Positions 3,556 through 62,540 of a stretch of DNA of 64,000 bases are shown one piece after another. Source of the DNA: Candidatus Magasanikbacteria bacterium RIFCSPHIGHO2_01_FULL_33_34 (GTDB taxonomy: Bacteria > Patescibacteriota > Patescibacteriia > Magasanikbacterales > UBA922); NCBI GenBank assembly GCA_001782825.1, contig MFPS01000007.1, positions 148,487 to 212,486 of the forward strand, in the 5' to 3' direction. The notes beneath the pieces were generated by a model. The model had not been told where the DNA came from and searched no databases. It was given only the letters and a program-made list of their open reading frames with translations. Each line of letters opens with the position of its first letter. Position 1 is the first letter of the stretch. The position numbers and the translations under genes are program-made.

Positions 3556-3590
3556 TAATCATAATTTAAAATACATATATAACTTACATT

Positions 3591-8420: not shown

Positions 8421-8447
8421 TTTTTATTTTTACAAATTTACAATAAA

Positions 8448-8547: not shown

Positions 8548-8580
8548 TGTTGTAACATACATGATATAATTGTAATCACT

Positions 8581-18262: not shown

Positions 18263-18362
18263 TACTATATATTACAGTTAAGCTATTTTAACATTTTATA
18301 AATAAAAATAAAAGACCATAAAAGTCTCTTATTTAATTTGTTTTAAATTATATAAACAATAA

Positions 18363-23944: not shown

Positions 23945-24010
23945 TTAATTGTAAGAATTTAAAACATCATTTATAATTAATGCGATCGTGATTGAAAGTA
24001 TAAACAATGC
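23945..24010. repeat. Apparent empty-site paralogue of the R3 flanks (outer repeat without the inner insert and core)
   Basis: TTGTAAGAATTtAAAACaTcATTTATAATTAA|TGCGaTCgTGATTGAAAGTATAAACAATgCTA, ~90% identical to 18101-18132 plus 18233-18262. Confidence 0.6.
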
Positions 24011-24074
24011 TATTTTATCTTACAAATTAATTAACACTATTCATACACTATTATATAAAATTATTAACAATATT

Positions 24075-24638
24075 TCAAATCTTTCCTGAACCTAAAGGGT
24101 TATATCCATTAGTAATTTCATAACCATCCGAAAAGCCATCCCCATCTGTATCAGATTTAGTCGGGTCAGTTTTATATTCTTCCACTTCTAATTTATCCGA
24201 TATACCATCCCAATCAGTATCAAATTCTGTATTACTTATACCTAATCTTTCTTCTTCAATATCCAAAACACCATCATTATCCAAATCATCATCTTCCAAT
24301 CTCAAAGAGGTAACTCCTATATTTTGTTTTTGTACTTTTTCAATTGGCTTTTTAACTTCCACTTCTACGCTCGTATCCTCTGTCTCACTTATTTTTTTAA
24401 TATCTTTTTTTACAAAAATATTAGTAAAAAAAATTAAATATACTAATATACTTATCAAAATAATGATACCACTAATAATCAAAATCATTTTAAATTTTGA
24501 TTTTCTTTGTGGATAGTCAAGTTCATTGCTATATACATTTTGATCCACTATTTTATTGTCATCTTGATATTCATTCATCTTATATTTAATTAAATTATTA
24601 TAAATATTATGGTTCAATATATGGCGGATCAACCACAT
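24075..24638 (-). CDS. Single-pass membrane protein with TSP3-like Ca-binding repeats ending NGYNPLGSG
   Basis: TM MILIISGIIILISILVYLIFF; DDDLDNDGVLDIEEE…TDWDGISD…SDTDGDGFSDGYEITNGYNPLGSGKI; start overlaps the giant gene's 3' end by 32 nt. Confidence 0.5.
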   Translation of the reverse strand: MWLIRHILNHNIYNNLIKYKMNEYQDDNKIVDQNVYSNELDYPQRKSKFKMILIISGIIILISILVYLIFFTNIFVKKDIKKISETEDTSVEVEVKKPIEKVQKQNIGVTSLRLEDDDLDNDGVLDIEEERLGISNTEFDTDWDGISDKLEVEEYKTDPTKSDTDGDGFSDGYEITNGYNPLGSGKI

Positions 24639-27600
24639 CTATTACACAACGACAGTCTACATTACAAGTTTCAAGCGCATAACAACCAGCATTTGATCCA
24701 TCACATTCTTCACCTGGTGGTTGTATAATTCCATCACCACAATAAGCTGGTGGAAGTATAATCAAAGGCCCACATTCACAATTTGAATAACACTCTTCAA
24801 AGAAACCACAATTTAATGAACTACCATCACATTCCTCATTTGCTTCTCTACTACCATTACCACACACTGCATAGCCATCACAAGTATTAAGACAATTATT
24901 TTGACCTGGAATTGCTGGATCACATATCTCACTTCCATCAATCCTACCATCACCACAAATAGACAATTCACCAATAACTCCACCCGTCTGAATCTGTTCA
25001 GCACTAGTAGCAATTCTATTTAACGGCAATATCTCATAATCACCAGAAGTTGCATCTCTATCTATATTAAACAAATGCCAATATCTCGCTGCAGGATTTG
25101 AACTCTTTAGAGCATCTTCTATAACATAAGTAATATCTGGTCTAAATACAGTCCGGAAAGATTCTGCTCCGGCTGGAGTTTCTCTATATTCATAAACATA
25201 AACTTCCAAATCACTATCATCAAAATATGCCATCGGTACCCCACCGGCCACACTTTGTGCTTCTACAAATACTGCATACGGCCCATAATTCAATAAAGAA
25301 TTTGGCGCAGTATTGAGTGGTATATTTATGGTCATTGATTGTATAAAAGTATCTTCACCCTCATTGATATCATGCATATAAAAACCTTCATTACCAAGCC
25401 CCAATGGCCAAACTGTACAACTTCTGGTTGTATTTGCAAAATTATAGTCAGGAATCCAATAACCACCAACCAGTTCTGTACCGATACAGATCTGTTTTGG
25501 TGTTGCCATATTTCTTTGCATAAACCTATCAGTTCCACCCAAAGTATCATCAGCTGACAAAATACCTAAACCAAAATCTGTACCACCAAATTCTTGTGAT
25601 TCTTCTCTTGTCCATTTAAGCACAACCCTAATTTGTCCTTCTGGTAAAGCAGGAGAAACAATAAAATCATTCACAACAGTATTTAATTCATTATTAACAT
25701 CATAACTATATACAAATTCTGATTCTGGTGATGTTTCTAGACAATTTTCAGTTCCAGCTTGAGGTGTCAAACACATATAATAACTACCATTACAAGCATT
25801 GTCAGCGATAATGCCATTCAATATATCTGTTTCACCCCATGGATAAAATATATTACTAGGTACATACATAACATCAACCAAATCAGGTCCTGCATAAAAT
25901 TGCACTCTATTATTTACAAGAAGTGAACTACCACTATTAGTCAAAAAATATGGTCCATTAGGCTCTGTATAATCTCTAAAATAAAACTTTGCAAACAATC
26001 CATTAGGGTCTGTACCCCATTGCCCACCAGAATAATGCAAACTAATCATCGGATTTAATATTCTCAAACTAGGATCAATGCCACCGCTTGTTAGTCTCTT
26101 ACTTCCACACTGTATACAATTATTATATAAAAATCCACAACTATTTCTACACTCATAATTACCAGTCAAAGTAGTATAAGTCCCATTCTCTAAAGAATAA
26201 TTACCACTTCGTCTGCTACATTGATCTAATTCAAATGTGCCAGAATTTGTCACAATATAAGGATTTGGACAATTTGCACCAACACAATTAGGTCTAACAT
26301 ACTCACAAACCTCAGTTCTAGAACAAAAATTATCAACACAATACCCAGAATTACAATCTGTGTTAGCAGTACAATAACCAAGTGGTTGACAAAAACCTGC
26401 TGGGCTACAATAATTAGAATCACAATCAGCCACTTGAGTAGCAACAGTACACGGATCATTAATATTTCCACTACCACCATAATCTACCAATGAAATAACA
26501 TCAATATTCTCATTACCACAATAAGCATTTGGTTCAATATAAAGTACCTCTCTACAATCCCATGAACAAAAGTTACAGCCTTGGTTGTAACCAGGGACAC
26601 ACTGGACACCATTTATACCATCACCTCTATCACATACTTCACCAGCATCAATATTACTATTACCACAATTACCTAAATCAGGCGTAACATTATCTACAGG
26701 CGCAGAAGCTTCATTTCTACAATTATTTGCACAACCATCTCCGCTAATATTGTTACCATCATCACATTCTTCGGCTGAAGTACATACTCCTGCACTACAA
26801 TTATTTGAAAAACATTGACTATTATTTAAGCAGATTGCACCACTATTACCAGTATGCAAAATTCCATCACCACAACGAGGACCTAATTGTTTACAATTTG
26901 CTGAACAACTATTAGAAGGTAGAGCAAATGTTGGTGGTGTTAAATATGCACCATTGTTAGCTCCTATATCACAATATTCAACTGGTGAACAAACATTCAT
27001 AGCCAAACAATTTCTATTTGTTCCACAACTTGTAACACAAGCATTAGGATTACCGGTACAATTTACATTATTAAATGCGCAATAACTATTTACAACATTA
27101 TCACCACAAAAACTGGCACTAAAAGTACACATAGCCGAACAATTTCCAGGTGTACCATTTAATGCCCCATCATCACATTGTTCTAATCCATCTACCCTAC
27201 CATTACCACACAAAATATCAACATCACAGCCACTATCCTGCCAATTACACGAACTATTACAAACTCTAGCTAAAGTACCCGAAATAGGTACACCATTCAC
27301 ATCTACTGCACAAGCATTTAATGTGTCAACCAATTGGCCAGGAGGATCACACTGTTCAGTACCATTTACAATCCCATTACCACAAGAACCAGACAAAGGT
27401 GATTCTGTACTTCCAGACACACCACACATAGAACCAATCTGAAAATGACTAACATCTATAAATGAACCCAAATCAGACAATCCAAAATATTCTGGACGCC
27501 CATAAATCATATAATCATTTGCTACATCAGGTCTATACTCTAATACTGATGAAACTGCTGGACAAATAAATCTACTATTCACTTCATCCCAACAGGTCTG

Positions 27601-30600
27601 ACTATCTACAGTCACACATACCTCCCCAGCACCAGCACAATCAACATCTGTTGAACAGAGTTGTTCAACTCCATCAACCAGACTACCTGGAACATGACAA
27701 TAATTACAAGTTGTCCAACGATTTATCGGATCAATTCCTACCCCACCACCAATTTCTTGACCCAAATTACCCCAAGATGGCCACAATGAACGAGTTCTAC
27801 CTGGTATATATGTACCAGCACGCAACTGTGGCGCTTCTGAACCAAAATCAACATATCCATTCATGGCTACTTGCGCATTGCGAATAGTAATGAATCTTGA
27901 CCAATCTCTTCTCATCTTTGTCTGATCTGCAGAACACATACCAGTTCCACCACCCAAAGGATTACCCAATAAATCCCTACAATCAAAATCAGTACTACAA
28001 GAAATATCTACCGCATTTTCACAAAACAAATCATTTGAAATATTAGAATTAAATTCCAATGAATTAATCAATTGTTCAAAAACATCATAAGTATTTTGTT
28101 GTGCATTTTCATTTATACTAAATACAAATATATTATTGTATAGCTCACCTAATCCAGGTCTATTAGCTGCCGATATATAATAATTACTACCATTAGTCAT
28201 AGCTTCATAACCATCAACTGAAATTTGATTGAATCCAGTTGGTTCACCAATTTTTCTCCTAAACCATTGAGTTAATGTTTCCTTTTCTAAAATAGTTGGT
28301 GCACTGTCTGTTAGAAAAACTTGCAAACCAATCACATCATCATTTACAGAATTGAAGAATAAAAAGCGTTTCAAATTTTCAGCATCTGGTAAACCAGAAG
28401 CTATATTAAATACAAATGGTCTTAAGTATGGCAAATCGTCTACTACATTACCAACCAAACCACTGTCGGCACAATAACTCATTTCAAAATTAAAGAAATC
28501 TCCATTTACATTACTCGTTCCAAGCATAGTTGAACCATCAAATATTCCAGCAGTCGTACCATCATTATTTCCAACTTCATCTTCAAATGGGAAATAATCT
28601 CTTGGTGGCCAAGGGTTTTCACAAAAAAATGAAACTAATTCGGCTGTGCCTGTAAAGGTTTGTCCAACTTGACTATCTACCAAATCTGTATCCACCAAAA
28701 CAGTTGCATGCGCACCAGCAGTTCTAGAACCCTCAAGTTCTGTAGAAGCTATAATTCTATTTGGGATATTTCCTGTAGTTATTATATCTGGATCAATTGT
28801 AAATAAAGTATCAGCTGATGGAGTCCAAAACCATTCCCAATCATATACACCCGGAATAGGACTAATCAATTGTCCACTGGTTGATTCAACAACAGCTGTA
28901 AAATTATAATCAGTATTTGGTGTATCATAAAAATAACCAGCAGGAATAACATTAATACTATTAATCTTACAAACATCATCTCCAGTTCTGAACATAAAAC
29001 TATCGTCTATTTCTCCAGTTCTAGCCACAACATTATTTAATGGACTTCTAATACCTACACCACGAACATCTTTTATACCATTATTACCCCCTTTTAATAG
29101 CACTGTATAATAAGCATTTTGTTCAAGTAAATTATTGAGATAAAAATCAACTCTACTCTCTATTACATTGCCATCAACATCAGTGGTTTTATTTACCAAT
29201 GGTAAACCACTAAATAAATTCTGTCTGCACCAAGAACCAACAGTAGCGACATTTGTAATAGAAGCTTTAGCCTGACCACCAGTAGCCCAAGTAAAAAAGC
29301 GTTTTATTGTGTTCCAAATATTTATAAAAATAGAATCACTTTTTTTATTATTATTTTCATATGCCAAAGTCCCATCAATATCAGAAGTAATATCTACACA
29401 ATCAACTGGTGGGGCTACCTCATAACCTCTTGCTATCCAAACATTATTCAACAAAGTTGTTTCATTGATATTACCATCAAAAGTCACTGATACTAATGAA
29501 TTCAAACAAACCACATTTGGATCCAATATACCAGCACCATCATAAGGATATTCATCTACTCGTTCTGGTCTATCATAACAACAAGAATTTGATCCTACAC
29601 CCAAAGTATTATTAACATTACCGCGACAATCATTATGATTATTAGCCAAATCTGGTTGTTCATACTCAGTAAAACCACAAGCCAAAGCATAATCTGCCTC
29701 ATCAGATAATTGAGTTTGTTGCGCAGGAATTAAATCTGCTAATTCACCACGAACTCGCACAATATTTGACTCTATCAATGTACTCATCAATTGTGTTCCA
29801 GGATCCAGCAATAACCTAGTGCCAACTGATCTTACAGATTGAACAGGATTTTGACCTGGTATGGCAAAACCAGCCATTTCTGCAACGGTATATTCACACC
29901 AACCATACTCTCCATCACCAACAACACCATCTCCACAAAGTGATGGAATAGTATATCTATCAATTGAAGACCCGTGTAAAGTACAATCTGGTTTACAACC
30001 TTCTTGTGTATTAGGATCACAATAAAATGGAGCTGGAATAACTGAATCACAAATATTTTGTAATAAACAATTTGAAGAACAAAGATTATCAAAATCAGCT
30101 ACAAATATTCCTGGAATTACAGTCCCATTATCACTAGCTGGGACTCCAAAATCTCCATCAAATAAATGAAATTGTCCACCAATTATTTCACACTCTTCTC
30201 CAAATTCTAATTCTCCATTTCCACATTGGCTAACCGCTTGTCTACATTCATCAGTATCCTGCCAAGCTGATCTATCATCACACCATTCTTGTACCAAACC
30301 AGTTCCAATATGTAAACAATTACTAGTACAAGTCCTACCAAGCACCTCTCCATTCAATCCTGGTTCACAATCCTCACCAACTGTAACTTCTGAACCATCA
30401 CAAATAGGTTGACCAGTTGAAGCTTCCTCAATATCTCTAGTTGAACCAATATGTAAACAAGTATTAGAACATCCAACTCGTGTTGATGATGTTAATCCTG
30501 GATCACATTCTTCACCCAAATTTGTTTCTAAAATACTATTTCCACAAGTTGCATTAGTGTTTCCCGGTCGCAAACAATTGATAGAACAAGAGTCACCAGC

Positions 30601-40240: not shown

Positions 40241-40315
40241 TGGACCCAAGAGGATTCGAACCTCTGACCTCTACAATGTCAATGTAGCACTCTAACCAAC
40301 TGAGCTATGAGTCCA
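40241..40315 (-). tRNA. tRNA-Val (anticodon GAC)
   Basis: rc folds as a cloverleaf; anticodon arm ctaca-TTGACAT-tgtag. Confidence 0.85.
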
Positions 40316-40334
40316 TTTATATAAAGAATTCCTG

Positions 40335-40409
40335 TGGGCGACCCGGGAATCGAACCTGGGACCTCAACATTATCAGTGTTGCGCTCTAACCATCTGAGCT
40401 AGTCGCCCA
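40335..40409 (-). tRNA. tRNA-Ile (anticodon GAT)
   Basis: rc: tgggcgactagctcagatggttagagcgcaacaCTGATAAtgttg…ggttcgattcccgggtcgccca. Confidence 0.85.
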
Positions 40410-46031: not shown

Positions 46032-46538
46032 ATGCCCTTCTCTCTTATAAGTGCGATTGCAAAAAATAACTGCATTGGCAAAAACAATAAACTTCCTTGG
46101 AATATCCCCGAAGATTTAGAGCATTTCAAACAATTAACTCTCGGCAAAAATTGTATTATGGGCCAAGCAACCTTTGAATCAATCTTGGGTTATCTTGGCA
46201 AACCACTACCAGGCAGGCAAACAGTCGTATTAACTTTAAACAAAGACTATACTGTACCTAAGGGCGTAAAGATATTTCATTCAATTGAAGATGCTTGGGA
46301 AACTCTCAAAGATGAAGATAATTTTGTCTGTGGTGGAGCAACAATTTACAAATTAACCATAGACAAAGTTGATACTCTATATATTACTCATGTTCATATG
46401 GAAGTTGATGGTGATGCATTTTTTCCAGAAATTGATAAAAATATTTGGCAAGAAGTAGAAAGAGAAGATCATGAAAAATTTTCATTTGTAACCTATAAAA
46501 AAGTTCATAGTTCAGAGCCAATAGCCAATAATTCATAA
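46032..46538 (+). CDS. folA: Dihydrofolate reductase
   Basis: ISAIAKNNCIGKNNKLPWNIPEDLEHFKQLT… DHFR signature. Confidence 0.9.
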   Translation: MPFSLISAIAKNNCIGKNNKLPWNIPEDLEHFKQLTLGKNCIMGQATFESILGYLGKPLPGRQTVVLTLNKDYTVPKGVKIFHSIEDAWETLKDEDNFVCGGATIYKLTIDKVDTLYITHVHMEVDGDAFFPEIDKNIWQEVEREDHEKFSFVTYKKVHSSEPIANNS

Positions 46539-46903
46539 TCAATCAGATTATTAATACATACAGAGAACTCATCGTATGGCAAAAATCAATAGAATTAGTA
46601 ATAGAAATTTATAAATTAACAAACTTATTCCCTACAGAAGAAAAATTTGGTTTAATTTCACAAATGAAAAGATGTTCAATTTCAATACCATCAAATATAG
46701 CAGAGGGATATGCAAGAAAAAATAAAAAAGAAAATGCTCATTTTATAAATATATCATTTGGTTCTGCAACAGAACTTGAAACACAAATTATTATTTCTAA
46801 AAAATTAAATTTTATTAACAACAATCAATGGGAAAAAGTAGATCAACTTTTGCTTGAAGTTTTACGGATGTTATATAAATACCGACAAGCACTTTATACT
46901 TAA
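46535..46903 (+). CDS. Four-helix-bundle protein (23S rRNA intervening-sequence protein family); no canonical ATG at the conserved N-terminus
   Basis: In-frame …YRELIVWQKSIELVIEIYKLTNLFPTEEKFGLISQMKRCSISIPSNIAEGYARK… matches the family; only ATA/ATC/ATT codons between the upstream TAA (46529) and the conserved VWQK. Confidence 0.55.
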   Translation: MINQIINTYRELIVWQKSIELVIEIYKLTNLFPTEEKFGLISQMKRCSISIPSNIAEGYARKNKKENAHFINISFGSATELETQIIISKKLNFINNNQWEKVDQLLLEVLRMLYKYRQALYT

Positions 46904-46928
46904 TTCTATTGGCTATGAACTACCAACT

Positions 46929-47615
46929 ATGAACTACAAAAAAGGATTATTCATAATGCTTGAAGGAACAGATGGTTCTGGAAAAACCACTCAAACCCAA
47001 TTATTACTTGATCATATAAAAAAAGAAGGTAAAAAAGTAAAAGAAATAAGCTTCCCCCAATATGGCACACCTAGTGCCTCAATGGTAGAAAAATATTTGA
47101 ATGGCGAATTTGGTACAGCTGAAGAAGTCGGGCCATACCGTGCTTCTATTTTTTATGCAATTGATAGATATGCCCATAGTCAACAAATAAAAAAATGGTT
47201 GGAAGAAGGTTATATTGTAATCGCCAATAGATATGTCGGATCAAATATGGGACATCAAGGTGGCAAAATAAAAAATGAAATAGAAAGAAAAAAATACTTT
47301 GAATGGAATTATAATCTTGAATACAATATATTTGGGATATCCAAGCCTGATATAAATATTATACTGCATGTTACACCAGAAATCTCACAACAACTTGTCG
47401 ACAAAAAAGAGACAAGAGACTATATAAAAACTGACAAAAAAAGAGATATACACGAAGATGACCTCAACCATCTTAGAGATGCTGAACTGGCATATTTACA
47501 AATAGCCAAATCCTTTCCAGAATTTCACCTAGTAGAATGCGTTGAAAAAAATGAAATATTACCATCTGAAACTATTCACAAAAAAATATGGGGATACATA
47601 CAAAAATTTATATAA
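46929..47615 (+). CDS. tmk: Thymidylate kinase
   Basis: MLEGTDGSGKTTQ P-loop, DRY motif; start placed at MNYKK. Confidence 0.85.
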   Translation: MNYKKGLFIMLEGTDGSGKTTQTQLLLDHIKKEGKKVKEISFPQYGTPSASMVEKYLNGEFGTAEEVGPYRASIFYAIDRYAHSQQIKKWLEEGYIVIANRYVGSNMGHQGGKIKNEIERKKYFEWNYNLEYNIFGISKPDINIILHVTPEISQQLVDKKETRDYIKTDKKRDIHEDDLNHLRDAELAYLQIAKSFPEFHLVECVEKNEILPSETIHKKIWGYIQKFI

Positions 47616-48560: not shown

Positions 48561-48680
48561 TAATTAATAATTAGAGATTATTATGAGCGGATTTGGTTGC
48601 CACAACAGGCAACCACCTCGGAGCCATAGCGAGAATCCTGCCGGCAGGCAGGGAGCGAATGATAATCTCTAATTATTAAT
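48561..48680 (+). repeat. Nested palindromic intergenic element, copy R4 (subfamily B) carrying an extra CCTGCCGGCAGGCAGG palindrome
   Basis: aattaataattagagattattat-GAGCGGATTTGGTTGCCACAACAGGCAACCACCTCGGAGCCATAGCGAGAAT[CCTGCCGGCAGGCAGG]GAGCGAATGA-taatctctaattattaatt. Confidence 0.85.
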
Positions 48681-48733
48681 TTCTATTTCAGATTATAAAT
48701 TAATTAATACTCCTCATAAATGAATAATAATCT

Positions 48734-50306: not shown

Positions 50307-50411
50307 ATAATTAATGATTAAAGATTATTATGAGCGGATTTGGTTGCCACAACAGGCAACCACCTCGGAGTCAAAGCGAGAATGAGAGAATAATAATCTT
50401 TAATCATTAAT
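50307..50411 (+). repeat. Nested palindromic intergenic element, copy R5 (subfamily B)
   Basis: aattaatgattaaagattattat-GAGCGGATTTGGTTGCCACAACAGGCAACCACCTCGGAGTCAAAGCGAGAATGA-gagaataataatctttaatcattaatt; shares 25 nt of right-hand extension with R4. Confidence 0.85.
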
Positions 50412-50573
50412 TTCTATTTCAGATTATAAATTAATCCACAGCTATACAGTTGCATCAATTACAATATACTGATAAACTGAATCAAACTATGAAAAAATTA
50501 AAATTACAGACAATTGATTATAAACAATATTAGAGACTTACCATCCCGAAAGGGGTGGTATTTTTTTGAAAAT

Positions 50574-51650
50574 ATGGAATTTATAGAATCACAACTTATA
50601 CTCAAAAAAGGTATAACTTTCAAAGGCCTGTCTCCTTCTAATCAAAAAGAAATATATTATGGTGAAGTAGTATTTACCACTGGAATGACTGGCTATATAG
50701 AGACACTCACCGACCCATCATATGCTGGCGAAATTATTACTTTCACCTACCCCCTCATTGGTAACTACGGCGTTCCCGAAAAAAAATATTGGGAATCAGA
50801 AAAAATACACGTCAGTGGCATAATTGTCAGTGAAGCCTGTACTAATTGGGATCATATAAACGGCAAATCTTCTCTCCTCAATTGGCTAGAATCCCAAAAA
50901 GTACCAATAATGACCAATGTTGATACCAGAGAACTTACCAAACAATTGCGTGAATATGGAGTAATGCCTGGGGCAATATTACCTACAAATTATTCTTCTA
51001 ATTCTCAAAATAAAAAATTAAATTATACAAATTTAAGTGATCAAAATCTTATACCAGAAGTTTCTACAAAAATAAAAAATATATATAATCAAAAAAAATC
51101 CAACAACAAAACTATAATCGTAGTAGATTGTGGAATAAAAAATAATATTTTGCGTTCACTTAAAGAACTTCCATTGACAATTCACCATGTGCCATACAAT
51201 TATGATTATACCCAAGAAAAATTTGATGCTGTTTTTCTATCAAATGGTCCAGGCGATCCAAAAGTTTGTATAGAAACAATCGCCATATTAAAAAAAGCTA
51301 TGAAATTAGAAAAACCAATTTTTGGTATTTGTCTTGGCTCGCAAATATTAGCTCTAGCTGCTGGCGCTGACACTTACAAATTAAAATATGGTCATCGTGG
51401 ACAAAACCAACCTTGTCGTGAAGAAAAAACTGGCAAGTGTTTTATTACCAGCCAAAATCATGGTTATGCAGTTGATGAAAAAACCATACCAAAAGATTGG
51501 TATATAAATTTTAGAAATTTAAATGATAATTCTGTTGAAGGAATTAGTCACAAAACTTTACCATTTTTTTCTGTCCAATTTCACCCTGAAGCTTCCCCTG
51601 GTCCAACTGATACAAAATGGTTATTTGAAAAATTTTACGATTTGATATGA
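50574..51650 (+). CDS. carA: Carbamoyl-phosphate synthase small (glutaminase) subunit
   Basis: …GEVVFTTGMTGYIETLTDPSYAGEI… and the class-I glutamine amidotransferase catalytic Cys motif (…GICLGSQIL…); start ambiguous (50514 or 50574). Confidence 0.85.
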   Translation: MEFIESQLILKKGITFKGLSPSNQKEIYYGEVVFTTGMTGYIETLTDPSYAGEIITFTYPLIGNYGVPEKKYWESEKIHVSGIIVSEACTNWDHINGKSSLLNWLESQKVPIMTNVDTRELTKQLREYGVMPGAILPTNYSSNSQNKKLNYTNLSDQNLIPEVSTKIKNIYNQKKSNNKTIIVVDCGIKNNILRSLKELPLTIHHVPYNYDYTQEKFDAVFLSNGPGDPKVCIETIAILKKAMKLEKPIFGICLGSQILALAAGADTYKLKYGHRGQNQPCREEKTGKCFITSQNHGYAVDEKTIPKDWYINFRNLNDNSVEGISHKTLPFFSVQFHPEASPGPTDTKWLFEKFYDLI

Positions 51651-54600
51651 ATAAACTAAATATAAAAAAAGTTCTACTTCTTGGTTCAGGCGGACTACGC
51701 ATTGGACAAGCTGGCGAATTTGATTATTCTGGTTCACAAGCAATCAAAGCTTTAAAAGAAGAAGGTATACATACTGTTCTTATCAATCCAAATATCGCCA
51801 CCATTCAAACTGATGGACAAGGTTTTAGTAAATCAAAAAAAGCCGCCGATACTGTATACTTACAACCATTAAATGTTCAAACTGTTACTAAAATTATTGA
51901 AAAAGAAAAACCTGATGCAATTTTTTTGAGTTTTGGTGGCCAAACTGCTTTAAATCTTGGCTTAGAACTAGATGAAATTGGTATATTTAAAAAATATAAT
52001 GTCAAAGTGCTGGGTACACCTATAAAAACCATCCGTCTCACAGAAGATCGTGAATTATTCAAACAAGCTCTCAAAGAAATTGATGTAAAAACAGCTAGAA
52101 GTATTGCTACTGATAATATTACTGAAGCAATATCTGCAGCAAAAAAAATTGGCTACCCTATAATGATGCGCTCTGGCTATTCTCTTGGCGGACTAGGTTC
52201 TGGCCTCATCAAAACAGAAGAAGAACTTAAAATACGCGCTAATGAAGCTTTGCACCAAGCACCACAAATTTTGATTGAAGAATACCTTGGGGGTTGGAAA
52301 GAAGTAGAATATGAAATAGTGCGCGATTCAGCTGACAATGTAGTAACTGTGTGCAATATGGAAAACATGGATCCAATGGGAATCCACACAGGCGAAAGTA
52401 TAGTAGTGGCACCATCACAAACTCTCAACAATCACGAATATCATCTCTTGAGAGAAATTGCTATTAAAACTGCTAGTCATATTGGAATCATCGGTGAATG
52501 TAATATCCAATATGCCCTCAATCCAGAAAATGGCGATTATCGGGTAATTGAAATCAATGCCAGACTATCACGATCTAGCGCCCTTGCCTCCAAAGCAACC
52601 GGCTATCCATTGGCCTTTATAGCTGCCAAACTTGGAATTAATATTCGCTTGGATGAAATCAAAAATTCAGTCACCCAAAAAACCTCAGCTTTCTTTGAAC
52701 CAGCCCTTGATTATTTGGTTATCAAAATACCAAAATGGGATATAAACAAATTCAAAAATGCTGAACAACATATTGGTTCAGAAATGAAAAGCGTCGGTGA
52801 GGTCATGGCAATTGGACGATCTTTTCCAGAAACACTGCAAAAAGCTGTGCGTATGTTGAATATAGGCACACAAGGCCTAAATGATTATCCTTATAAAATA
52901 GAAAATTTAAAAGATGAAATAGAAAATCCAACTTTCCGCAGATTATTTGCTATTTATCAATATTTTAAAAAAGGAGCTACTGTAAATGAAATATTTAAAC
53001 TATCCAAAATTAATCCTTGGTTTTTGCATCATATTTACTCAATTGCACAGATGGAAAAAAATATAACAAAAAATAATTTAGATAAAACAACTCTACAACA
53101 AGCTAAACAATTTGGATTCTCTGATAAAACTATAGCTAAACTTAAAAATACCACTGAAAAAGAAATTCGTGCCAAAAGAATTAATCTCAATATTAAACCA
53201 ATAATAAAACAAATTGACACTTTGGCGGGAGAATTTCCAGCCAAAACTAATTATTTATATACGACTTATAATGGGCAATACCATGATATTTTGCGATCAA
53301 AAAAGAAACCAATTATTGTAATTGGTTCTGGCCCATATTGTATTGGATCTTCAGTAGAATTTGATTGGTGCGCAGTAAATACTGCTAGGACTTTAAAAAA
53401 ACTAAAAGAATCAACTATTATTATAAACTCAAATCCAGAAACAGTTTCAACTGATTATGATGAGTCAGATAGATTATACTTTGAAGAACTAACGGCTGAA
53501 AGAATTGCAGACATTGCTGATTTTGAAAATACCAAAGGTATTATTGTATCGGTTGGTGGACAAATACCAAATAATATAGCCCTACCTCTCAGTAAAGCCG
53601 GCTACCCAATCTTGGGTACAAATGCTACTTCCATTGACCAAGCAGAAGATAGACAAAAATTTTCTTCACTTTTAAATAAATTAAATATTGATCAACCAAC
53701 TTGGGAAGAAGTCAGTACATTATCCAAAGCACGCTCATTTGCTGAACGTATTGGTTATCCTGTTTTAGTCCGTCCATCATATGTTCTATCTGGCGCAGCT
53801 ATGAATGTCATATATGATGAATCTGAACTAAAAAATTATCTGGCAAATTCAGCCACAGTATCACCCGACCACCCAGCTGTACTATCCAAATTTATCCAAA
53901 ATGCCAAAGAACTTGAAGTTGATGGCGTAGCTAAACAAGGGCAAATTATCATAGAAGCAATTACAGAACATGTAGAAAATGCTGGTGTACATTCTGGTGA
54001 CGCTACCATAATCCTTCCACCCCAAAGACTATATTTGGAAACCATCCGCCGTGCCAAAAAACTTACCGCCAAAATAGTAAAAGCCTTAAATATTACTGGC
54101 CCATTCAATATTCAATTCATTGCCAAAGATAATTGGTTAAAAATAATTGAATGCAATGTCCGCGCTTCACGCTCCTTCCCTTTTGTATCCAAAGTAACAA
54201 ACAACAATTTTATTGAAATAATGACAGAAGTTATTTTAAACAAACACAAATCAAAAACCTATCAAACTCTTGAACTTGATTATGTCGGCGTAAAAACCCC
54301 ACAATTTTCCTATAGTCGCCTCAAAGGTTCTGACCCTGTTGCCCATGTAGAAATGGCTTCTACCGGTGAAGTAGCCTGTATCGGTGACAATTACTTAGAA
54401 GCCTTTTTTACCTCATGGTTATCAACTGAACAATCAATTTCTGGCAAACGTATTCTTTTGAGTATTGGGGACGAGAAAAAAAATAAATTAATTAATCTGA
54501 TACAAGCACTTGATGAACAAAATTGGGAAATATTTGCAACTGAAGGTACACATAAATATTTAGCAGAATATGGCATTGCTTCAACTTTTTTACACAAAGC

Positions 54601-54850
54601 AAGCGTTGATGCTTCACCAAATATTACTGACACAATTGAAAACAAAAAAATTGATCTTATCTTAAATATTCCTCGTAGCAACGGCACAAGCAATAAAACC
54701 GATGGTTTCAAAATTCGACGACTGGCTATTGATCATCAAATCCCTCTAATTACCAATCTACAAATTGCCCAACTTTTTCTACGCTCTATCACAGAATTAA
54801 AATTAGAAAATGTTCCAGTAAAATCTTGGCAAGAATTTATAAAAAATTAA
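51647..54850 (+). CDS. carB: Carbamoyl-phosphate synthase large subunit
   Basis: 1067 aa, duplicated ATP-grasp halves, MGS-like C-domain. Confidence 0.95.
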   Translation: MNKLNIKKVLLLGSGGLRIGQAGEFDYSGSQAIKALKEEGIHTVLINPNIATIQTDGQGFSKSKKAADTVYLQPLNVQTVTKIIEKEKPDAIFLSFGGQTALNLGLELDEIGIFKKYNVKVLGTPIKTIRLTEDRELFKQALKEIDVKTARSIATDNITEAISAAKKIGYPIMMRSGYSLGGLGSGLIKTEEELKIRANEALHQAPQILIEEYLGGWKEVEYEIVRDSADNVVTVCNMENMDPMGIHTGESIVVAPSQTLNNHEYHLLREIAIKTASHIGIIGECNIQYALNPENGDYRVIEINARLSRSSALASKATGYPLAFIAAKLGINIRLDEIKNSVTQKTSAFFEPALDYLVIKIPKWDINKFKNAEQHIGSEMKSVGEVMAIGRSFPETLQKAVRMLNIGTQGLNDYPYKIENLKDEIENPTFRRLFAIYQYFKKGATVNEIFKLSKINPWFLHHIYSIAQMEKNITKNNLDKTTLQQAKQFGFSDKTIAKLKNTTEKEIRAKRINLNIKPIIKQIDTLAGEFPAKTNYLYTTYNGQYHDILRSKKKPIIVIGSGPYCIGSSVEFDWCAVNTARTLKKLKESTIIINSNPETVSTDYDESDRLYFEELTAERIADIADFENTKGIIVSVGGQIPNNIALPLSKAGYPILGTNATSIDQAEDRQKFSSLLNKLNIDQPTWEEVSTLSKARSFAERIGYPVLVRPSYVLSGAAMNVIYDESELKNYLANSATVSPDHPAVLSKFIQNAKELEVDGVAKQGQIIIEAITEHVENAGVHSGDATIILPPQRLYLETIRRAKKLTAKIVKALNITGPFNIQFIAKDNWLKIIECNVRASRSFPFVSKVTNNNFIEIMTEVILNKHKSKTYQTLELDYVGVKTPQFSYSRLKGSDPVAHVEMASTGEVACIGDNYLEAFFTSWLSTEQSISGKRILLSIGDEKKNKLINLIQALDEQNWEIFATEGTHKYLAEYGIASTFLHKASVDASPNITDTIENKKIDLILNIPRSNGTSNKTDGFKIRRLAIDHQIPLITNLQIAQLFLRSITELKLENVPVKSWQEFIKN

Positions 54851-54861
54851 ATCATCATACT

Positions 54862-55785
54862 ATGCCCACTGAATTTAAAAATAGAGATATAATCTCAATC
54901 ACAGATTTATCAAAATCAGATATTCTCCATATATTAAAAGTAGCAGAAGATCTAAAAAAGAAACCCAGACCAGATTTATTAAAAGGAAATATTATGGCAA
55001 GTTGTTTTTTTGAAAATTCAACTCGCACTCGCCTATCATTTGAAACTGCTATGCTCCGACTAGGTGGTAATGTAACTGGATTTTCCAATGCAGATGTAAC
55101 TTCAATAAAAAAGGGGGAAACCTTATATGACACCATAAAAATAATTGGACAATATGTAGATGTAATCGCGCTACGACACCCGCTTGAAGGCGCAGCCAAA
55201 TTAGCCTCTGAAGCAACTGATAAACCTATTATAAACGGTGGAGATGGTGCCAATCAACATCCAACTCAAACTCTATTAGATTTATTTACAATAAGAGAAT
55301 GCCAAAAAAAATTAACTGATCTCAAAATAGCTCTTGTCGGCGATTTAAAATATGGTCGTACCGTCCACTCACTTGCTCAAGCACTTGTCCACTTTGGTGT
55401 ACGACTTTATTTGATTGCGCCAAATGTATTACAAATGCCAAACCATATTCTAGACACATTAAAACTCTCCGGTATAAAATTCTCTATGCATGAAAATATG
55501 GAATCAATCATAAATAAAGTAGACATTATATATATGACTAGAATCCAAGAAGAAAGATTTACTGATAAGATTGAATATGAACGTTTAAAAGACTCATTTA
55601 TTCTAAAAACTGAACACTTAAAAAAGGTCCAGAATTCTATGCGAATCATGCATCCTTTGCCTAGGGTAAATGAAATTAGCCCTGATGTAGACAAAACTAA
55701 ACATGCCTATTATTTTGAACAAGCTAAAAATGGACTTTTTGTTAGACAAGCTATACTTGGTTTACTTCTTGGAAAATTAAATTAA
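54862..55785 (+). CDS. pyrB: Aspartate carbamoyltransferase catalytic subunit
   Basis: STRTRLSFE carbamoyl-phosphate motif, HPLP motif; start moved to the MPTEF codon after the carB stop. Confidence 0.9.
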   Translation: MPTEFKNRDIISITDLSKSDILHILKVAEDLKKKPRPDLLKGNIMASCFFENSTRTRLSFETAMLRLGGNVTGFSNADVTSIKKGETLYDTIKIIGQYVDVIALRHPLEGAAKLASEATDKPIINGGDGANQHPTQTLLDLFTIRECQKKLTDLKIALVGDLKYGRTVHSLAQALVHFGVRLYLIAPNVLQMPNHILDTLKLSGIKFSMHENMESIINKVDIIYMTRIQEERFTDKIEYERLKDSFILKTEHLKKVQNSMRIMHPLPRVNEISPDVDKTKHAYYFEQAKNGLFVRQAILGLLLGKLN

Positions 55786-55791
55786 AAAAAT

Positions 55792-56265
55792 ATGACCATA
55801 CAAAATAAAAAATTATTAGTATCAGCCATCAAAGATGGCACTGTAATTGATCGGATTGAATCAGGAAATGCTCTTAAAGTTATACATTTTCTTAATATAA
55901 TAGATAGTGAAAAAATTATTACCGTTGGACTAAATCTTCCAAGCAAAGTTATGGGAAAAAAAGATTTAGTAAAAATAGAAAATCTAGAATTAACAACAAA
56001 ACAAATAAATGATCTTGCAATTTTGGCTCCTAATGCTACTATTAATATAATAAAAAAATATAAAGTAATAAAAAAATTTAAAGCTGAAATTCCAGATTAT
56101 ATTCACAATATAGTTACCTGTCCTAACCCAAAGTGTATAACAAACAATGAAAATATTATTACCAAATTTGATATCATAAACAAAAAAAATCCCATAAAAA
56201 TAAAATGTAATTATTGTGAAAAAATTTTTGAACAAAATGATATACTAAATTATAAACACACTTAA
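55792..56265 (+). CDS. pyrI: Aspartate carbamoyltransferase regulatory subunit
   Basis: N-terminal allosteric domain + C-terminal 4-Cys zinc domain (CPNPKC…CNYCEK). Confidence 0.85.
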   Translation: MTIQNKKLLVSAIKDGTVIDRIESGNALKVIHFLNIIDSEKIITVGLNLPSKVMGKKDLVKIENLELTTKQINDLAILAPNATINIIKKYKVIKKFKAEIPDYIHNIVTCPNPKCITNNENIITKFDIINKKNPIKIKCNYCEKIFEQNDILNYKHT

Positions 56266-56266
56266 T

Positions 56267-57460
56267 GTGAAAATAAAAACTTTTGATAACCAAACTATTG
56301 ACTTACCAATAGAAGAAAACATATCTCAAAAAAATATTATTGCTTTACCAGGACTCATTGATCCTCATGTACATTTTCGTATACCTGGGGGAGAACACAA
56401 AGAAACTTGGGAAACTGGCGCCCAAGCTGCCATCGCTGGTGGTGTCTGTACAGTCCTTGATATGCCAAATAACAACCCTTCAATAACCGATGAAAAAACT
56501 TTTTTAGAAAAAAAAGAAATAATAAAAAAACAATTAAAAAATACAGACATAAATCTAAACTATTTTTTATACTTAGGAGCAACTGAAAATAATATAAATG
56601 AAATAAAAAAACTAAAAAATGAAATAGTGGCAGTAAAAATGTTTATGGGATCAAGCACTGGCAATCTTTTGGTGGCAGATCTTGAAAAACAAAAAGAGAT
56701 TTTTAAAATATGCGGTGAATTAAATATACCCCTAGCAGTCCATGCTGAAAATGAAGCCATGATTATTGAAAATACACAGAAGCTATCAGACTCAATCAAT
56801 AATATTACTACTCATTCCAAGATTCGCTCACGAGAAGTAGCCGAGTCTGCTGTAAAACAAGCAATTAAACTCGCAGAAATTTATAAAACTAAATTATATA
56901 TACTCCACTGTAGCACAAAAGAAGAAATGGACTTAATAAGACTTGCCAAACAAAAAAATATTGATGTCTCAGCTGAAGCTTGCCCACACCACCTATTTTT
57001 AAATGATACAGCGTATGAAAAATTTGGCAGTAAAGTACAAATGAATCCACCTATACGTACTAGCACAGACAATGAAGCATTGTGGACCGCCCTTATTGAT
57101 GGCACTATTGATACCATTGGAAGTGACCACGCTCCTCATTTATTATCTGAAAAAGCAAATCCTTATCCTAATTCCCCTTCTGGAATACCCGGTATAGAAA
57201 CCACTCTGCCACTTTTATTAAATGCTTATAATCAAGACAAAATAAAACTGGAAAAAATTGTTGAACTGACAAACACAAATGCCAAAAAAATATTTAACCT
57301 AAAAATAACTGACAGTTGGGTAATAGTTGATTTGGATTTAGAAAAAGAAATAAAAAATGAAAATTTAAAAACTAAATGTGGCTGGTCCCCTTTTGCTGGA
57401 CAACTCATCAAAGGCTGGCCAATCTATACAGTATTAAACAATAAAATATATAAATTATAG
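56267..57460 (+). CDS. pyrC: Dihydroorotase
   Basis: LPGLIDPHVHFR metal-binding motif, amidohydrolase fold. Confidence 0.85.
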   Translation: MKIKTFDNQTIDLPIEENISQKNIIALPGLIDPHVHFRIPGGEHKETWETGAQAAIAGGVCTVLDMPNNNPSITDEKTFLEKKEIIKKQLKNTDINLNYFLYLGATENNINEIKKLKNEIVAVKMFMGSSTGNLLVADLEKQKEIFKICGELNIPLAVHAENEAMIIENTQKLSDSINNITTHSKIRSREVAESAVKQAIKLAEIYKTKLYILHCSTKEEMDLIRLAKQKNIDVSAEACPHHLFLNDTAYEKFGSKVQMNPPIRTSTDNEALWTALIDGTIDTIGSDHAPHLLSEKANPYPNSPSGIPGIETTLPLLLNAYNQDKIKLEKIVELTNTNAKKIFNLKITDSWVIVDLDLEKEIKNENLKTKCGWSPFAGQLIKGWPIYTVLNNKIYKL

Positions 57461-57507
57461 TAAAAATATAATAGTATTGTTTACACTTTTACAACGACCG
57501 CATTATT

Positions 57508-57625
57508 TTCAATTATTTATTTTTACTCCCTGCCTGCCGGCAGGCAGGATTCTCGCTTTGGCTCCGAGGGTGATGCCTGTTGAGGCCTCAAATCCGTAAA
57601 AATAAATAAACAAATTAATGCTTAA
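57508..57625 (-). repeat. Nested palindromic intergenic element, copy R7 (subfamily A, core in minus orientation) with the extra CCTGCC(TGCC)GGCAGGCAGG palindrome
   Basis: rc core GGATTTGAGGCCTCAACAGGCATCACCCTCGGAGCCAAAGCGAGAAT[CCTGCCTGCCGGCAGGCAGG]GA; arms aattatttatttttac / gtaaaaataaataa; outer flanks homologous to R3. Confidence 0.8.
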
Positions 57626-57673
57626 TTATAAATAACACTTTTAATTGTTATACCTTGCATAAAATAATATATT

Positions 57674-58735
57674 ATGATTAACACCCCATTTTACGACCCA
57701 ACAAAATCCTATGAAGAAAATTACTCAGATGGACCTTTTGGTGCATTTGCTGACAATGAAATATATCAAAACCAAGGTGAGCCAAACTATGATTATCACA
57801 ATCACAAAGTCTATTCACCTTTCGGTATTCCAGCTGGTCCAATTATAAATAGTAATTTTGCCAAAAGCGCCTTTGAAAAAGGATTTGATTTAGTTGTTTA
57901 TAAAACTGTCCGCACTGGTATTTTTCCCTGCCACCCTCACCCAAATATAATGGCCATACATATTGATAAAATAACTCCTGAAATAATGGCTGGCAAAATA
58001 ACCGCTGACACCAACTACACTGAACCGCTAACCATAACAAATTCTTTTGGCGTACCATCCAAAGATCCAGATGAATGGCAAATAGATATAAAAAAAGCTA
58101 TTAGTTATGCAAAGACTGGACAAATGTTAATAGCTGGCTTTATGGGCACAGTAAAAGAAAATCAAACCCAAGAAGAATTTATAAAAGATTATGCTTTGGC
58201 AGCGCGACTAACCAAAGAAACTGGCGCAAAAGTATTGGAGGCAAATCTATCTTGTCCAAATATTGGAAATGAAGGTCTTGTCTGCTACAACATTGATATT
58301 ACTCACAAAGTCTGCAAAGCTATACGAGATGAAATCGGCAATACACCACTTGCTATAAAACTTGGTTATTTTAATAATGATAATGAATTAAAAAAAATAG
58401 CTGAAATTGCCCATAATTATGTTGATGAAGTAATAGCCATAAATACTCTACCCTCAACTATTGTCGACAAATATGGTAATCAAGCTTTGAAAGGTCAGAA
58501 CCGAGTAAAAAGTGGTATATGTGGAGCCGGCATCAAATGGGCTGGACTTGATATGGTCAAAAGACTCAAAAAAATACGAGACGAAAATAATTATAAATTC
58601 TCCATCACTGGAGTAGGTGGAGTAATGAATAAAGAAGATTTCAAAGAATACCAAAATATTGGAGCAGAAATAGTCATGTCTGCAACTGGCGCTATGTGGG
58701 ATCCATACTTAGCTCAAAAAATTAAATCAATTTAA
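57674..58735 (+). CDS. pyrD: Dihydroorotate dehydrogenase (class 1-like, Cys active-site base) with ~50-aa N-terminal extension
   Basis: NLSCPN active site, GxGGV FMN-binding motifs. Confidence 0.8.
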   Translation: MINTPFYDPTKSYEENYSDGPFGAFADNEIYQNQGEPNYDYHNHKVYSPFGIPAGPIINSNFAKSAFEKGFDLVVYKTVRTGIFPCHPHPNIMAIHIDKITPEIMAGKITADTNYTEPLTITNSFGVPSKDPDEWQIDIKKAISYAKTGQMLIAGFMGTVKENQTQEEFIKDYALAARLTKETGAKVLEANLSCPNIGNEGLVCYNIDITHKVCKAIRDEIGNTPLAIKLGYFNNDNELKKIAEIAHNYVDEVIAINTLPSTIVDKYGNQALKGQNRVKSGICGAGIKWAGLDMVKRLKKIRDENNYKFSITGVGGVMNKEDFKEYQNIGAEIVMSATGAMWDPYLAQKIKSI

Positions 58736-58788
58736 TAAATAATTTAAATCAATTATAAAATACTTAAATTATTTATTTTTAACAATAC

Positions 58789-58891
58789 AATTAATAATTA
58801 GAGATTATTATGAGCGGATTTGGTTGTCACAACAGGCAACCACCTCGGAGCCACAGCGAGAATGAGCGAATGATAATCTCTAATTATTAAT
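58789..58891 (+). repeat. Nested palindromic intergenic element, copy R6 (subfamily B)
   Basis: Identical arms to R4; core GAGCGGATTTGGTTGTCACAACAGGCAACCACCTCGGAGCCACAGCGAGAATGA (apical stem C-to-T gives a G·U wobble). Confidence 0.85.
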
Positions 58892-58905
58892 TTAACAAAT
58901 TTATT

Positions 58906-59511
58906 ATGAATTCAGACTTAGATCAATTAATCTTAGACCTCTATGATATTGAGGCTATCAAATTTGGCGAATTTGAATTAAAAAGTGGCTTAATATCACC
59001 AATATACATGGACATCCGTCTAATAGTTTCATATCCAAAAATACTAAAATCAATTGCAAAAATAATGTGGAGTAAAGTATGTAAAATTGAATTTGATATA
59101 ATCTGTGGAGTGCCATACACTGCCCTACCAATCGCAACTGTTATGTCTACCCAAAATAACAAACCAATGATAATGCGAAGAAAAGAAGTAAAAAAATATG
59201 GAACAAAAAAAATAATAGAAGGTAAATTTGAAAGTAAACAAACATGTCTTGTAGTTGAAGATCTCGTCACTAGTGGCTCCAGTATTTTTGAAACCATTGA
59301 ACCAATTGAAGACGTCGGATTGATTGTAAAAGATATTATTATTCTAATTGATCGTGAACAAGGTGGAAAAAATCATATTGAAAACAAAGGCTACAAACTA
59401 CACAGCATAGCAAAAATATCTGAAATCTTGAAAGTATTAAAAAAATATGAAAAAATAGATACAAATACTTTCAACAAAGTAAATAAATTTATTAAAGAAA
59501 ACCAAGTATAA
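58906..59511 (+). CDS. pyrE: Orotate phosphoribosyltransferase
   Basis: PRPP-binding VVEDLVTSGSS motif. Confidence 0.85.
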   Translation: MNSDLDQLILDLYDIEAIKFGEFELKSGLISPIYMDIRLIVSYPKILKSIAKIMWSKVCKIEFDIICGVPYTALPIATVMSTQNNKPMIMRRKEVKKYGTKKIIEGKFESKQTCLVVEDLVTSGSSIFETIEPIEDVGLIVKDIIILIDREQGGKNHIENKGYKLHSIAKISEILKVLKKYEKIDTNTFNKVNKFIKENQV

Positions 59512-59512
59512 T

Positions 59513-60283
59513 ATGTTAACCTACTCAAAAAGAATAGCTTATACCACAAACCCAACTGCACAAAAACTTTTTGAAATAATAGAAGAAAAAAAAACCAATC
59601 TCTGTCTATCAATTGATGTTACTACCAAAAGCGAACTATTATTATTTGCTGATTTAATTGGCCCACAAATCTGCCTTTTAAAAACTCATATAGATATAAT
59701 CGAAGATTTTGATTTTGAAACTATAAGCCAACTACAAAGGCTTTCAGAAAAGCATAATTTTTTATTATTTGAAGATAGAAAATTTGCTGATATTGGTAAT
59801 ACTGTGGCTTATCAATACCAAGACGGGATATACCATATTGCCGACTGGGCACACATAACAAATGCCCATTGTATCGCTGGCCCAGGCACAATAGAAGGAC
59901 TCAAAATAAATGGTATGCACAAAGGCAGAGGATTATTATTGATAGCGCAAATGTCATCAAAAGATAATCTGACCACCAAAGAATATACCCAAAACACAAT
60001 AGAGCTAGCCAAAAATAATCAAGATTTTGTAATAGGATTCATATCAATGAAAAAGCTTGACGATAACCCTGGTTTTATTCATATGACACCCGGTGTCAAA
60101 CTAGACACAGGCTCGGATAATTTAGGACAACAATACAATACTCCTGAATCAGTAATTTATGAAAACGAATCAGACATAATTATTGTCGGCAGAGGAATAA
60201 TAGAATCTACAAACCCAAAACAAGAAGCAGAAAATTACAAAATTGCTGGATGGAATGCTTATACCAGAAGATTAGAAAAATAA
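59513..60283 (+). CDS. pyrF: Orotidine-5'-phosphate decarboxylase (long, URA3-like type)
   Basis: DxK…KFADIGNTV motif. Confidence 0.85.
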   Translation: MLTYSKRIAYTTNPTAQKLFEIIEEKKTNLCLSIDVTTKSELLLFADLIGPQICLLKTHIDIIEDFDFETISQLQRLSEKHNFLLFEDRKFADIGNTVAYQYQDGIYHIADWAHITNAHCIAGPGTIEGLKINGMHKGRGLLLIAQMSSKDNLTTKEYTQNTIELAKNNQDFVIGFISMKKLDDNPGFIHMTPGVKLDTGSDNLGQQYNTPESVIYENESDIIIVGRGIIESTNPKQEAENYKIAGWNAYTRRLEK

Positions 60284-62456: not shown

Positions 62457-62540
62457 TGCCGAAGGCGGGACTCGAACCCGCACGCTGTGAAGCACCTGCT
62501 CCTAAGGCAGGCGTGTATACCAATTTCACCACTTCGGCAT
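62457..62540 (-). tRNA. tRNA-Leu (anticodon TAG), long variable arm
   Basis: rc: gccgaag-tg-gtgaaattggtatacac-gcctgcCTTAGGAgcagg-tgcttcacagcgtg-cgggttcgagtcccg-ccttcggc-a. Confidence 0.85.

Follow-up and report, generated by a model that had tools for sequence, protein, structure and literature searches.

Miniature inverted-repeat transposable elements, or MITEs, are small (50-500 bp), non-coding, multicopy and dispersed, and terminal inverted repeats together with target duplications are their classical signature (PMC10969869). We describe a repeat family of this size and multiplicity in a window of 64,000 nucleotides (contig MFPS01000007.1, positions 148,487 to 212,486) from Candidatus Magasanikbacteria bacterium RIFCSPHIGHO2_01_FULL_33_34, a member of the candidate phyla radiation (CPR): eight non-coding intergenic copies of 101-123 bp, inserts included, lie dispersed over the 80.5 kb that we surveyed. 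Each copy presents a conserved GC-rich core at the apex of a hairpin whose AT-rich arms differ between subfamilies A, B and C; the focal copy, R4, runs from the arm AATTAATAATTAGAGATTATTAT through a GC-rich centre to the reverse complement of that arm. Conserved terminal inverted repeats are not found in these arms but only in an outer shell, O, which surrounds the A-type copies, and a mini-palindrome, P4, is lodged in two of the cores. The family is new and its kind, that of bacterial mobile palindromic repeats, is familiar, whereas its nested architecture is unusual; we judge the chances to be even that it is a mosaic palindromic repeat of MITE/REP type, non-coding and lineage-specific, that has multiplied as DNA in this Magasanikbacteria genome.

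Several described systems come close to this arrangement, each in part. The Correia (NEMIS) elements of Neisseria share with the present family a length of ~100-150 bp, a non-coding character, many intergenic copies at about one per 8-10 kb, the folding of the whole element into a long hairpin, and a location near gene starts with promoter-like motifs, and their RNA hairpins have been proposed to act at the RNA level through RNase III (PMC2229807). They differ in having conserved 26-bp terminal inverted repeats and TA duplications, whereas here the arms differ completely between subfamilies, the apex is conserved, and the B- and C-type copies show no target duplication. The REP, BIME and REPIN elements associated with RAYT (Y1/HUH) enzymes are likewise short intergenic palindromes of similar density and mosaic composition in which the hairpin is the recognised structure, and they too lack target duplications and are used by other mobile elements as landing sites (PMC3116915, PMC3333891, PMC1525189). 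A REP is, however, 20-40 nt long with a 5' GTAG-type tetranucleotide, and a REPIN has conserved arms and a variable loop, the reverse of the present family, in which CGGATTTG precedes the core hairpin, the arms vary and the apex is constant; no RAYT gene was seen in the 64-kb window. Insertion of IS1397, ISKpn1 and IS110-family elements into REP sequences is a known route to nested palindromes, with one element at the hairpin tip of another and insertion at palindrome centres (PMC1525189, PMC12288879), but such insertion sequences encode a transposase, whereas the layers here (77, ~52, ~51 and 20 nt) are all tiny and non-coding. Pneumococcal BOX elements and enterobacterial BIMEs are built of interchangeable modules that form stem-loops and are co-transcribed with their neighbours (PMC3049150). 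In BOX it is the end modules, boxA and boxC, that are conserved and the middle that varies, and the modules are unrelated in sequence to those described here. The mobile GC clusters of yeast mitochondria are small GC-rich palindromic inserts in AT-rich intergenic DNA, some of them inside RNA genes, and differ in belonging to a eukaryotic organelle and in their unrelated sequence, their mechanism being likewise unsettled. PATEs, derived from IS200/IS605, have subterminal hairpins at both ends and insert 3' of a fixed tetra- or pentanucleotide, with neither inverted termini nor duplication; the present core has two hairpins and no duplication, and A-type cores follow TTAC, but B-type cores follow GAGC and C-type cores GAAC, and no TnpA gene was seen.

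A first-pass annotation of the window had reported seven copies that combine a GC-rich apex of conserved sequence with subfamily-specific arms, and both points are borne out. A covariance model, the check which that annotation proposed, was built from the R1-R7 cores and searched against the window at E<=10; it recovered exactly the seven copies (66.5-81.5 bits, E 1e-18 to 1e-23) and no further core. The 11-mer ACCTCGGAGCC, allowing at most two mismatches, occurs nine times where 2.26 occurrences are expected, a count reached in none of 100 shuffles. Extending the region by way of neighbouring genes, by 6.9 kb to the left and 9.6 kb to the right, brought the total to 80.5 kb and added an eighth copy, R8, of subfamily A, about 9 kb past the right end of the window (core at L023 549-599). 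At 8 copies per 80.5 kb the density, initially called very high, is comparable to that of REP or Correia elements elsewhere and not exceptional. The copies within the window, with one associated flank, are these:

3455-3555, minus strand: R1, subfamily A, core 3480-3530, arms pairing at 25 of 25 positions.
8446-8548, plus strand: R2, subfamily C, core 8471-8523, from the covariance model.
18133-18235, plus strand: R3, subfamily A, core 18159-18209, from the covariance model.
48562-48681, plus strand: R4, subfamily B and the copy in focus, with its core at 48588-48655 between arms 48562-48587 and 48656-48681, covariance-model score 73.5 bits.
48682-48704, plus strand: outer flank TTCTATTTCAGATTATAAATTAAT common to R4 and R5, with its second copy at 50413-50435, from the repeat comparison.
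50309-50412, plus strand: R5, subfamily B, core 50335-50386, covariance-model score 81.5 bits.
57500-57622, minus strand: R7, subfamily A, core 57526-57596, with chimeric arms.
58789-58892, plus strand: R6, subfamily B, core 58815-58866, its hairpin P2 containing a U.G pair.

Once the 16- or 20-nt GC palindrome of R4 and R7 is subtracted, every unit measures 101-104 bp. The cores are 51-53 nt long and 53-63% GC, the arms 25-26 bp long and 8-19% GC, in a genome of ~33% GC. The extent of 162 bp first given for R3 holds, A-type units being embedded in an outer element; the arms, first given as 20 to 45 bp, measure 25-26 nt.

The arms and the core differ in conservation: the left and right arms pair at 88-100% of positions within a copy (R7, at 69%, is the exception), while arms of different subfamilies cross-pair at 31-65%, the background for such composition, and the cores remain 77-85% identical between subfamilies. 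The complementarity of arms within each copy is thus upheld, and it extends to compensated differences inside subfamilies: R5 departs from R4 at two arm positions, both compensated on the opposite arm, and R8 departs from R1 at about ten, all mirrored. It is perfect, as had been claimed of every copy, in R1 and R8 (26 of 26), but not in R3 (one G.T and one mismatch), R4 (23 standard pairs in 26 positions, one being G.T), R5 (three unpaired positions, then 23 paired) or R6 (one G.T), and in R7 the arms pair over only 13 bp before diverging. R7 is a recombinant with an R8-type left arm and an R3-type right arm: its left arm pairs at 0.92 with the right arm of R8 and its right arm at 0.96 with the left arm of R3. 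The arms do not look like the covarying basal stem of the original description, being unrelated in register between subfamilies. Because cores differ by only ~15-23% across the same subfamilies and the family is missing in relatives, slow compensatory drift is unlikely, and module exchange would fit better.

A second, outer layer surrounds the A-type copies. O is a 77-bp imperfect palindrome that holds R1, R3, R7 and R8 centrally and occurs empty at one further site; its terminal inverted repeats are TTGTAAGA...TCTTACAA, its ends read TTGTAAGAATT...TCTTACAA, and the motif TTGTAA-N16-18-TAYAMT is confined to O ends in the 80.5 kb. Within the window it is found as follows:

3422-3589, plus strand: O shell around R1, termini TTGTAAAA...CTTACAT, direct repeat TTTAT.
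18101-18277, plus strand: O shell around R3, direct repeat TTAAG.
23949-24025, plus strand: empty O copy of 77 bp, without arms or core, flanks CTTAA/ATTAA.
57461-57653, ends approximate, minus strand: degenerate O shell around R7, lying between the pyrC stop and the pyrD start.

At R8 the direct repeat is ATAAT, so that three of the five O copies carry perfect 5-bp direct repeats, and the empty copy matches at four of five bases. Because it combines terminal inverted repeats with 5-bp target duplications, the O shell is, to judge by its sequence, a classical MITE. The first-pass annotation had called the family the opposite of a classical MITE, which is true of its variable arms and conserved apex, but all four A-type units are cargo at the centre of one. 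The 103-bp unit has one orientation within O in R3, R7 and R8 and is inverted in R1. In all five cases a start codon in the orientation of O follows 13-45 nt downstream, and both ends of O resemble inward-facing sigma-70 promoters; the left-end motif is TTGTAA-N17-TATAAT at R3 and R8 and is degenerate at R7. Such promoter-like matches occur at chance level in this AT-rich DNA, and O-end promoters are a lead only. B-type copies share partial outer flanks, without clear duplications.

The core itself is read, in oriented copies, as CGGATTTG, a 6-7-bp hairpin, P2, with the loop NCAACA, and CACCTCRGAGYC-NN(N)-RGCGAKAATGAG. In the folding that we propose, the arms form one long helix that leads through a 2x2 purine internal loop, 5'-CGGAUU opposite 5'-AAUGAG and invariant in all copies, into a junction bearing P2 and a further, weak hairpin of 4 bp, P3. 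Units of types B and C have two more Watson-Crick pairs, which are G-C in B and A-U in C, along with a second tandem G.A/A.G. Two-sided changes occur at four of the seven P2 pairs among the eight distinct sequences (GC/UA, GC/UA, AU/UA and CG/GC/UA/UG). Of all cells in the proposed structure, 95.5% are paired, against 84.8% in column shuffles, none of 500 of which reached the observed value, and sliding the 3' partners out of register lowers pairing to 30-46%. P3 shows breaks and no covariation, and the three AU pairs beneath it never vary among the eight sequences. P2 is a supported helix, and the remainder of the fold is a proposal.

Such a structure raises the main rival to our reading, which we regard as a tentative possibility: the core may be a functional structured RNA, either a three-way junction or a cis-acting mRNA element, with the arms as an RNase III processing stem, and its copies may have been recruited at many operons, among them the pyrimidine cluster and nrdR, rather than having spread selfishly. 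The GC island that each core forms within its arms, the covariation of P2 and the constancy of the loops and the purine internal loop across subfamilies all favor this idea. Three stem mismatches (in the R3 arm, the R4/R6 arm and the R6 P2) are G.U on the strand taken as sense, and of four sense cores tested, three folded better than their shuffles (z -2.2 to -2.8). The choice of strand is nevertheless ambiguous, as antisense cores fold about equally well and R1 and R2 can form another central helix whose wobble pairs lie on the antisense strand only, leaving three wobble-pair events that favor sense and two that favor antisense; the lack of covariation in P3 also speaks against an RNA role. 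This ambiguity of strand, together with the occurrence of both orientations and the ease with which near-perfect AT-rich palindromes are extruded, could instead indicate that a host protein of nucleoid, regulatory or replicative function recognises the elements as DNA, in double-stranded or cruciform form, with the core as putative binding site and the arms aiding extrusion; REP/BIME elements are known protein-binding sites (PMC2817692). We consider this quite improbable: the core is asymmetric, its conserved non-Watson-Crick purine internal loop makes little sense in duplex DNA, inspection revealed no recognisable IHF-type motif common to all subfamilies, and no candidate binding protein is known. 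RNA and DNA are both candidate roles for the core.

Every one of the eight copies falls between genes. R1 is found upstream of a DUF5663 gene, R2 between the rplT terminator hairpin (8341-8421) and the gene that follows, R3 between ftsZ and nrdR, R4 between a DUF7847 gene (downstream of that gene's terminator) and gatB, R7 between pyrC and pyrD, and R8 between genes for a TrmB-family protein and a HAD hydrolase; R5 starts ~16-18 nt past the gatB stop, upstream of a terminator-like hairpin at 50539-50560, and the right arm of R6 ends 13 nt before the pyrE start codon, within the operon. Since called genes make up ~87% of the 21.6 kb of locus L003 (sum of its gene table), the placement of every copy in a spacer would be far from random. 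The hairpin upstream of R2 has 27-nt arms (85% complementary) and a T run, directly follows rplT and is probably the infC-rpmI-rplT terminator. The carA-carB-pyrB-pyrI-pyrC-pyrD-pyrE-pyrF block (50514-60283) sits between gatB and miaA in this genome only, gatB being directly followed by miaA and miaB in the relatives L014, L016 and L027; R5, R7 and R6 are inside this block, and R4 is just upstream of gatB.

This setting bears on the rivals as well. A functional RNA would gain from the presence of four of the eight copies in or beside the gatB-pyr cluster and of one upstream of nrdR, and sense transcription is possible for every copy, five being co-directional with flanking genes and R3, R7 and R8 being preceded by the inward-pointing left-end motif of O; it would lose from the mixed orientation relative to the downstream gene (five sense, three antisense) and from the chance level of the promoter-like matches. 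That the elements are instead unusual intrinsic, possibly bidirectional, terminators or attenuators is very improbable in our view. As whole elements they are large, stable intergenic hairpins (-31 to -57 kcal/mol), and TTTCTATTTC follows R4 and R5, but the combination of GC-rich stem, short loop and T tract that marks an intrinsic terminator is not present: the stem is formed by the AT-rich arms, the apex exceeds 50 nt and most copies lack a T tract. Furthermore, a consensus terminator scan does not call the elements, separate canonical terminators stand beside R2, R4 and R5, and R6 is situated inside an operon.

It is barely credible that the core encodes a micropeptide. Several copies are crossed by ATG-initiated open reading frames (ORFs) of 25-42 codons; R1, R3, R4, R5, R7 and R8 are covered by small ORFs, visual inspection shows an ATG-initiated frame through R2 and R6 as well, the R1 frame (L020 9843-9938) is called as a gene in a public assembly, and on inspection the core substitutions of subfamily B fall on third codon positions. 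A 1-nt difference in P2 length, however, shifts the frame between subfamilies and yields unrelated peptides, which largely refutes this explanation, and a protein search with all core frames found no relatives. Repeat-spanning ORFs of 28-42 codons occur at several copies, at least one of them annotated as a gene in a public assembly, and are probably annotation artefacts.

An innermost layer, P4, occupies the core of one A-type and one B-type copy. R7 and R4 carry CCTGCC(TGCC)GGCAGGCAGG at an identical point in the core, GAAT^GAG, in the following forms:

48637-48652, no strand assigned: 16-nt form CCTGCCGGCAGGCAGG in the R4 core, missing from the otherwise near-identical R5 and R6 cores.
57529-57548, no strand assigned: full 20-nt form CCTGCCTGCCGGCAGGCAGG in the R7 core, at the position equivalent to that in R4.

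In full P4 is a 20-nt perfect palindrome, and it is an element in its own right, separate from the core. An exact copy lies outside any core in a related complete genome (GCA_965231005.1; L018 16316-16335), where it occupies the tip of a CCAGGAT...ATCCTGG hairpin in the spacer that follows pyrD, and a copy with one mismatch lies upstream of gatB in L026 (192-211). In L052 (2284-2303) P4 lies within the variable arm of a tRNA-Met, a gene still recognised by ARAGORN, and this placement resembles that of yeast GC clusters inside RNA genes. A scan of IMG/VR returned the exact 20-mer in 35 stretches, from contigs of ~30 datasets spanning 38-68% GC, some with 3-6 copies, and its contexts in these viral contigs were short tandem-repeat tracts, flanking direct repeats of 7-14 nt, or flanks that extend the palindrome; P4 is often found at hairpin tips or between such direct repeats. 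The exact 20-mer was not among the PLSDB and GenBank phage matches listed, no copy of P4 alone occurs in the 80.5 kb, and the literature searched contained no mention of it. Its variants, namely the 16-nt form carried by R4, the point variant of L026 and a degenerate neighbour in L028, speak against P4 being a pure artefact.

Beyond this population the relatives and databases searched gave no copy of the core other than chance matches. It was not detected, with filters off, in 76.6 kb from five relatives (71-82% GatB identity), where the best score was 11 bits and ~7 copies would be expected at window density, and the O shell was likewise not found there; the DUF7847-gatB spacer, which measures 297 nt here, is 72-144 nt in L014 and L018. 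That relatives keeping the same genes are missing the element counts against a functional RNA, as does the lack of any Rfam family. At gathering scores the window contains only the transfer-messenger RNA (tmRNA) and four tRNAs, and E-value scans of R4, R1 and R2 on both strands gave only sub-threshold matches to miRNA-precursor hairpins, in keeping with the absence of any match above noise; no family was reached, including the hammerhead, twister, pistol and hatchet ribozymes, the PyrR site and riboswitches. Exact-pattern scans for the core gave two chance matches in coding DNA among GTDB species representatives, four chance matches in JGI metagenomes and, with two patterns, none in IMG/VR, sets from which the source genome is absent and which therefore bear on other species only. 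GenBank phages and PLSDB plasmids, queried by blastn, returned nothing. We also considered an origin of the core from tmRNA, tRNA or other local sequence, and only chance matches of <=14 nt appeared. In GCA_965231005.1 (L018 3346-3479 and 6783-6894) there are long intergenic palindromes with 34-43-nt arms and unrelated centres, and palindromic spacer elements may be common in the clade.

The layers nest in the order O, arms, core and P4, each lying within the one before it. On the reading that the family is a mosaic repeat multiplied as DNA, the core would be a separable module that became attached to four or more unrelated arm sets through insertion or recombination at palindrome centres; this interpretation is supported by the occurrence of one core on unrelated arms, the chimeric arms of R7, the inversion of the core relative to O in R1, and the presence of P4 at one site in both A- and B-type copies, and insertion sequences that target REP palindromes offer a precedent for nesting (PMC1525189). 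A-type units ride inside O, whose shell a DDE-type transposase would move. A fold-back hairpin state that recurs during replication, transposition or repair could copy or correct one arm from the other, and arm complementarity may be kept for this reason, while the core would be conserved as a cis-acting structured part that serves to propagate the element or to act on the host. If an element is transcribed, its long AT-rich duplex and structured tip would make a natural substrate for RNase III, and cleavage would alter the processing or stability of neighbouring mRNAs, by analogy with Correia elements.

Several observations weigh against this account. No transposase, HUH/Y1, RAYT or recombinase gene was found among the window ORFs (Pfam), and the called genes of the 16.5-kb flanks include no transposase family. 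The B- and C-type copies show no target-site duplication, and none was consistent around the bare core. The seven assemblies that cover the gatB-pyr part are 99.8-100% identical at the elements, and this near-identity offers no strain-level insertion polymorphism that would attest recent mobility. No palindrome consisting of arms alone occurs in the 80.5 kb, which weakens the case for core insertion into pre-existing palindromes, and simple module swapping does not explain why unrelated arms share a length of 25-26 bp. A functional RNA is the main rival, and the terminator, DNA-site and micropeptide explanations are weaker. A bolder proposal, which we think unlikely, is that the 51-nt core, and separately the 20-nt P4, are minimal non-coding elements that home to the centres or tips of existing DNA hairpins, or that the core is a new structured small RNA freed by RNase III cleavage of the arms.

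The window contains two CPR-typical families, DUF5663 and the PF18895 pilin, and an identical GatB is encoded on MFPW01000009.1 (GCA_001782875.1) and in many other assemblies of the same population. Its stable RNA genes, the tmRNA (118 bits, beside smpB) and the four tRNA genes, are the only Rfam families above gathering score and fall in these spans:

6519-6926, 9277-9350, 40241-40408 and 62457-62538: tmRNA and tRNA sites, from the Rfam gathering scan.

A 3499-codon ORF with internal repeats (24607-35106; families D2 and D8 of the repeat scan) has as its neighbours a Big_5/T4SS-pilin protein and two proteins with TSP3 repeats; the ensemble resembles the giant surface-protein loci typical of CPR genomes. 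A PF05635 gene (46664-46903), of the '23S rRNA intervening-sequence protein' or bAvd-like type, is flanked by ~30-nt inverted repeats (46502-46935) built from the motifs AGTTCATAG and GCCAATAG; it is missing between the DHFR and thymidylate kinase genes of four relatives, and a gene-less copy of its flanking repeats lies upstream of rplT (7870-7985). Together they look like another small mobile cassette and its MITE.

CPR genomes are usually called streamlined and repeat-poor, but this one has at least three layers of tiny non-coding palindromes, which may take up on the order of 1-2% of its DNA. The elements lie in promoters, 5' untranslated regions and intercistronic spacers of gatB, carA, pyrD, pyrE and nrdR, and such long hairpins inside operons could affect operon expression in organisms that are unculturable. 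The combination of a conserved structured tip with interchangeable arms is the reverse of MITE and REPIN logic and suggests either targeting of hairpin centres or a selected RNA module. If homing to hairpins were true, these would be 'Russian-doll' palindromes, and P4 would be an ultra-small element shared by CPR bacteria and unrelated viral contigs and able to sit as an extra arm in a tRNA. P4, which CPR bacteria have verbatim in common with dozens of viral contigs that differ widely in GC content, may represent a more general phenomenon.

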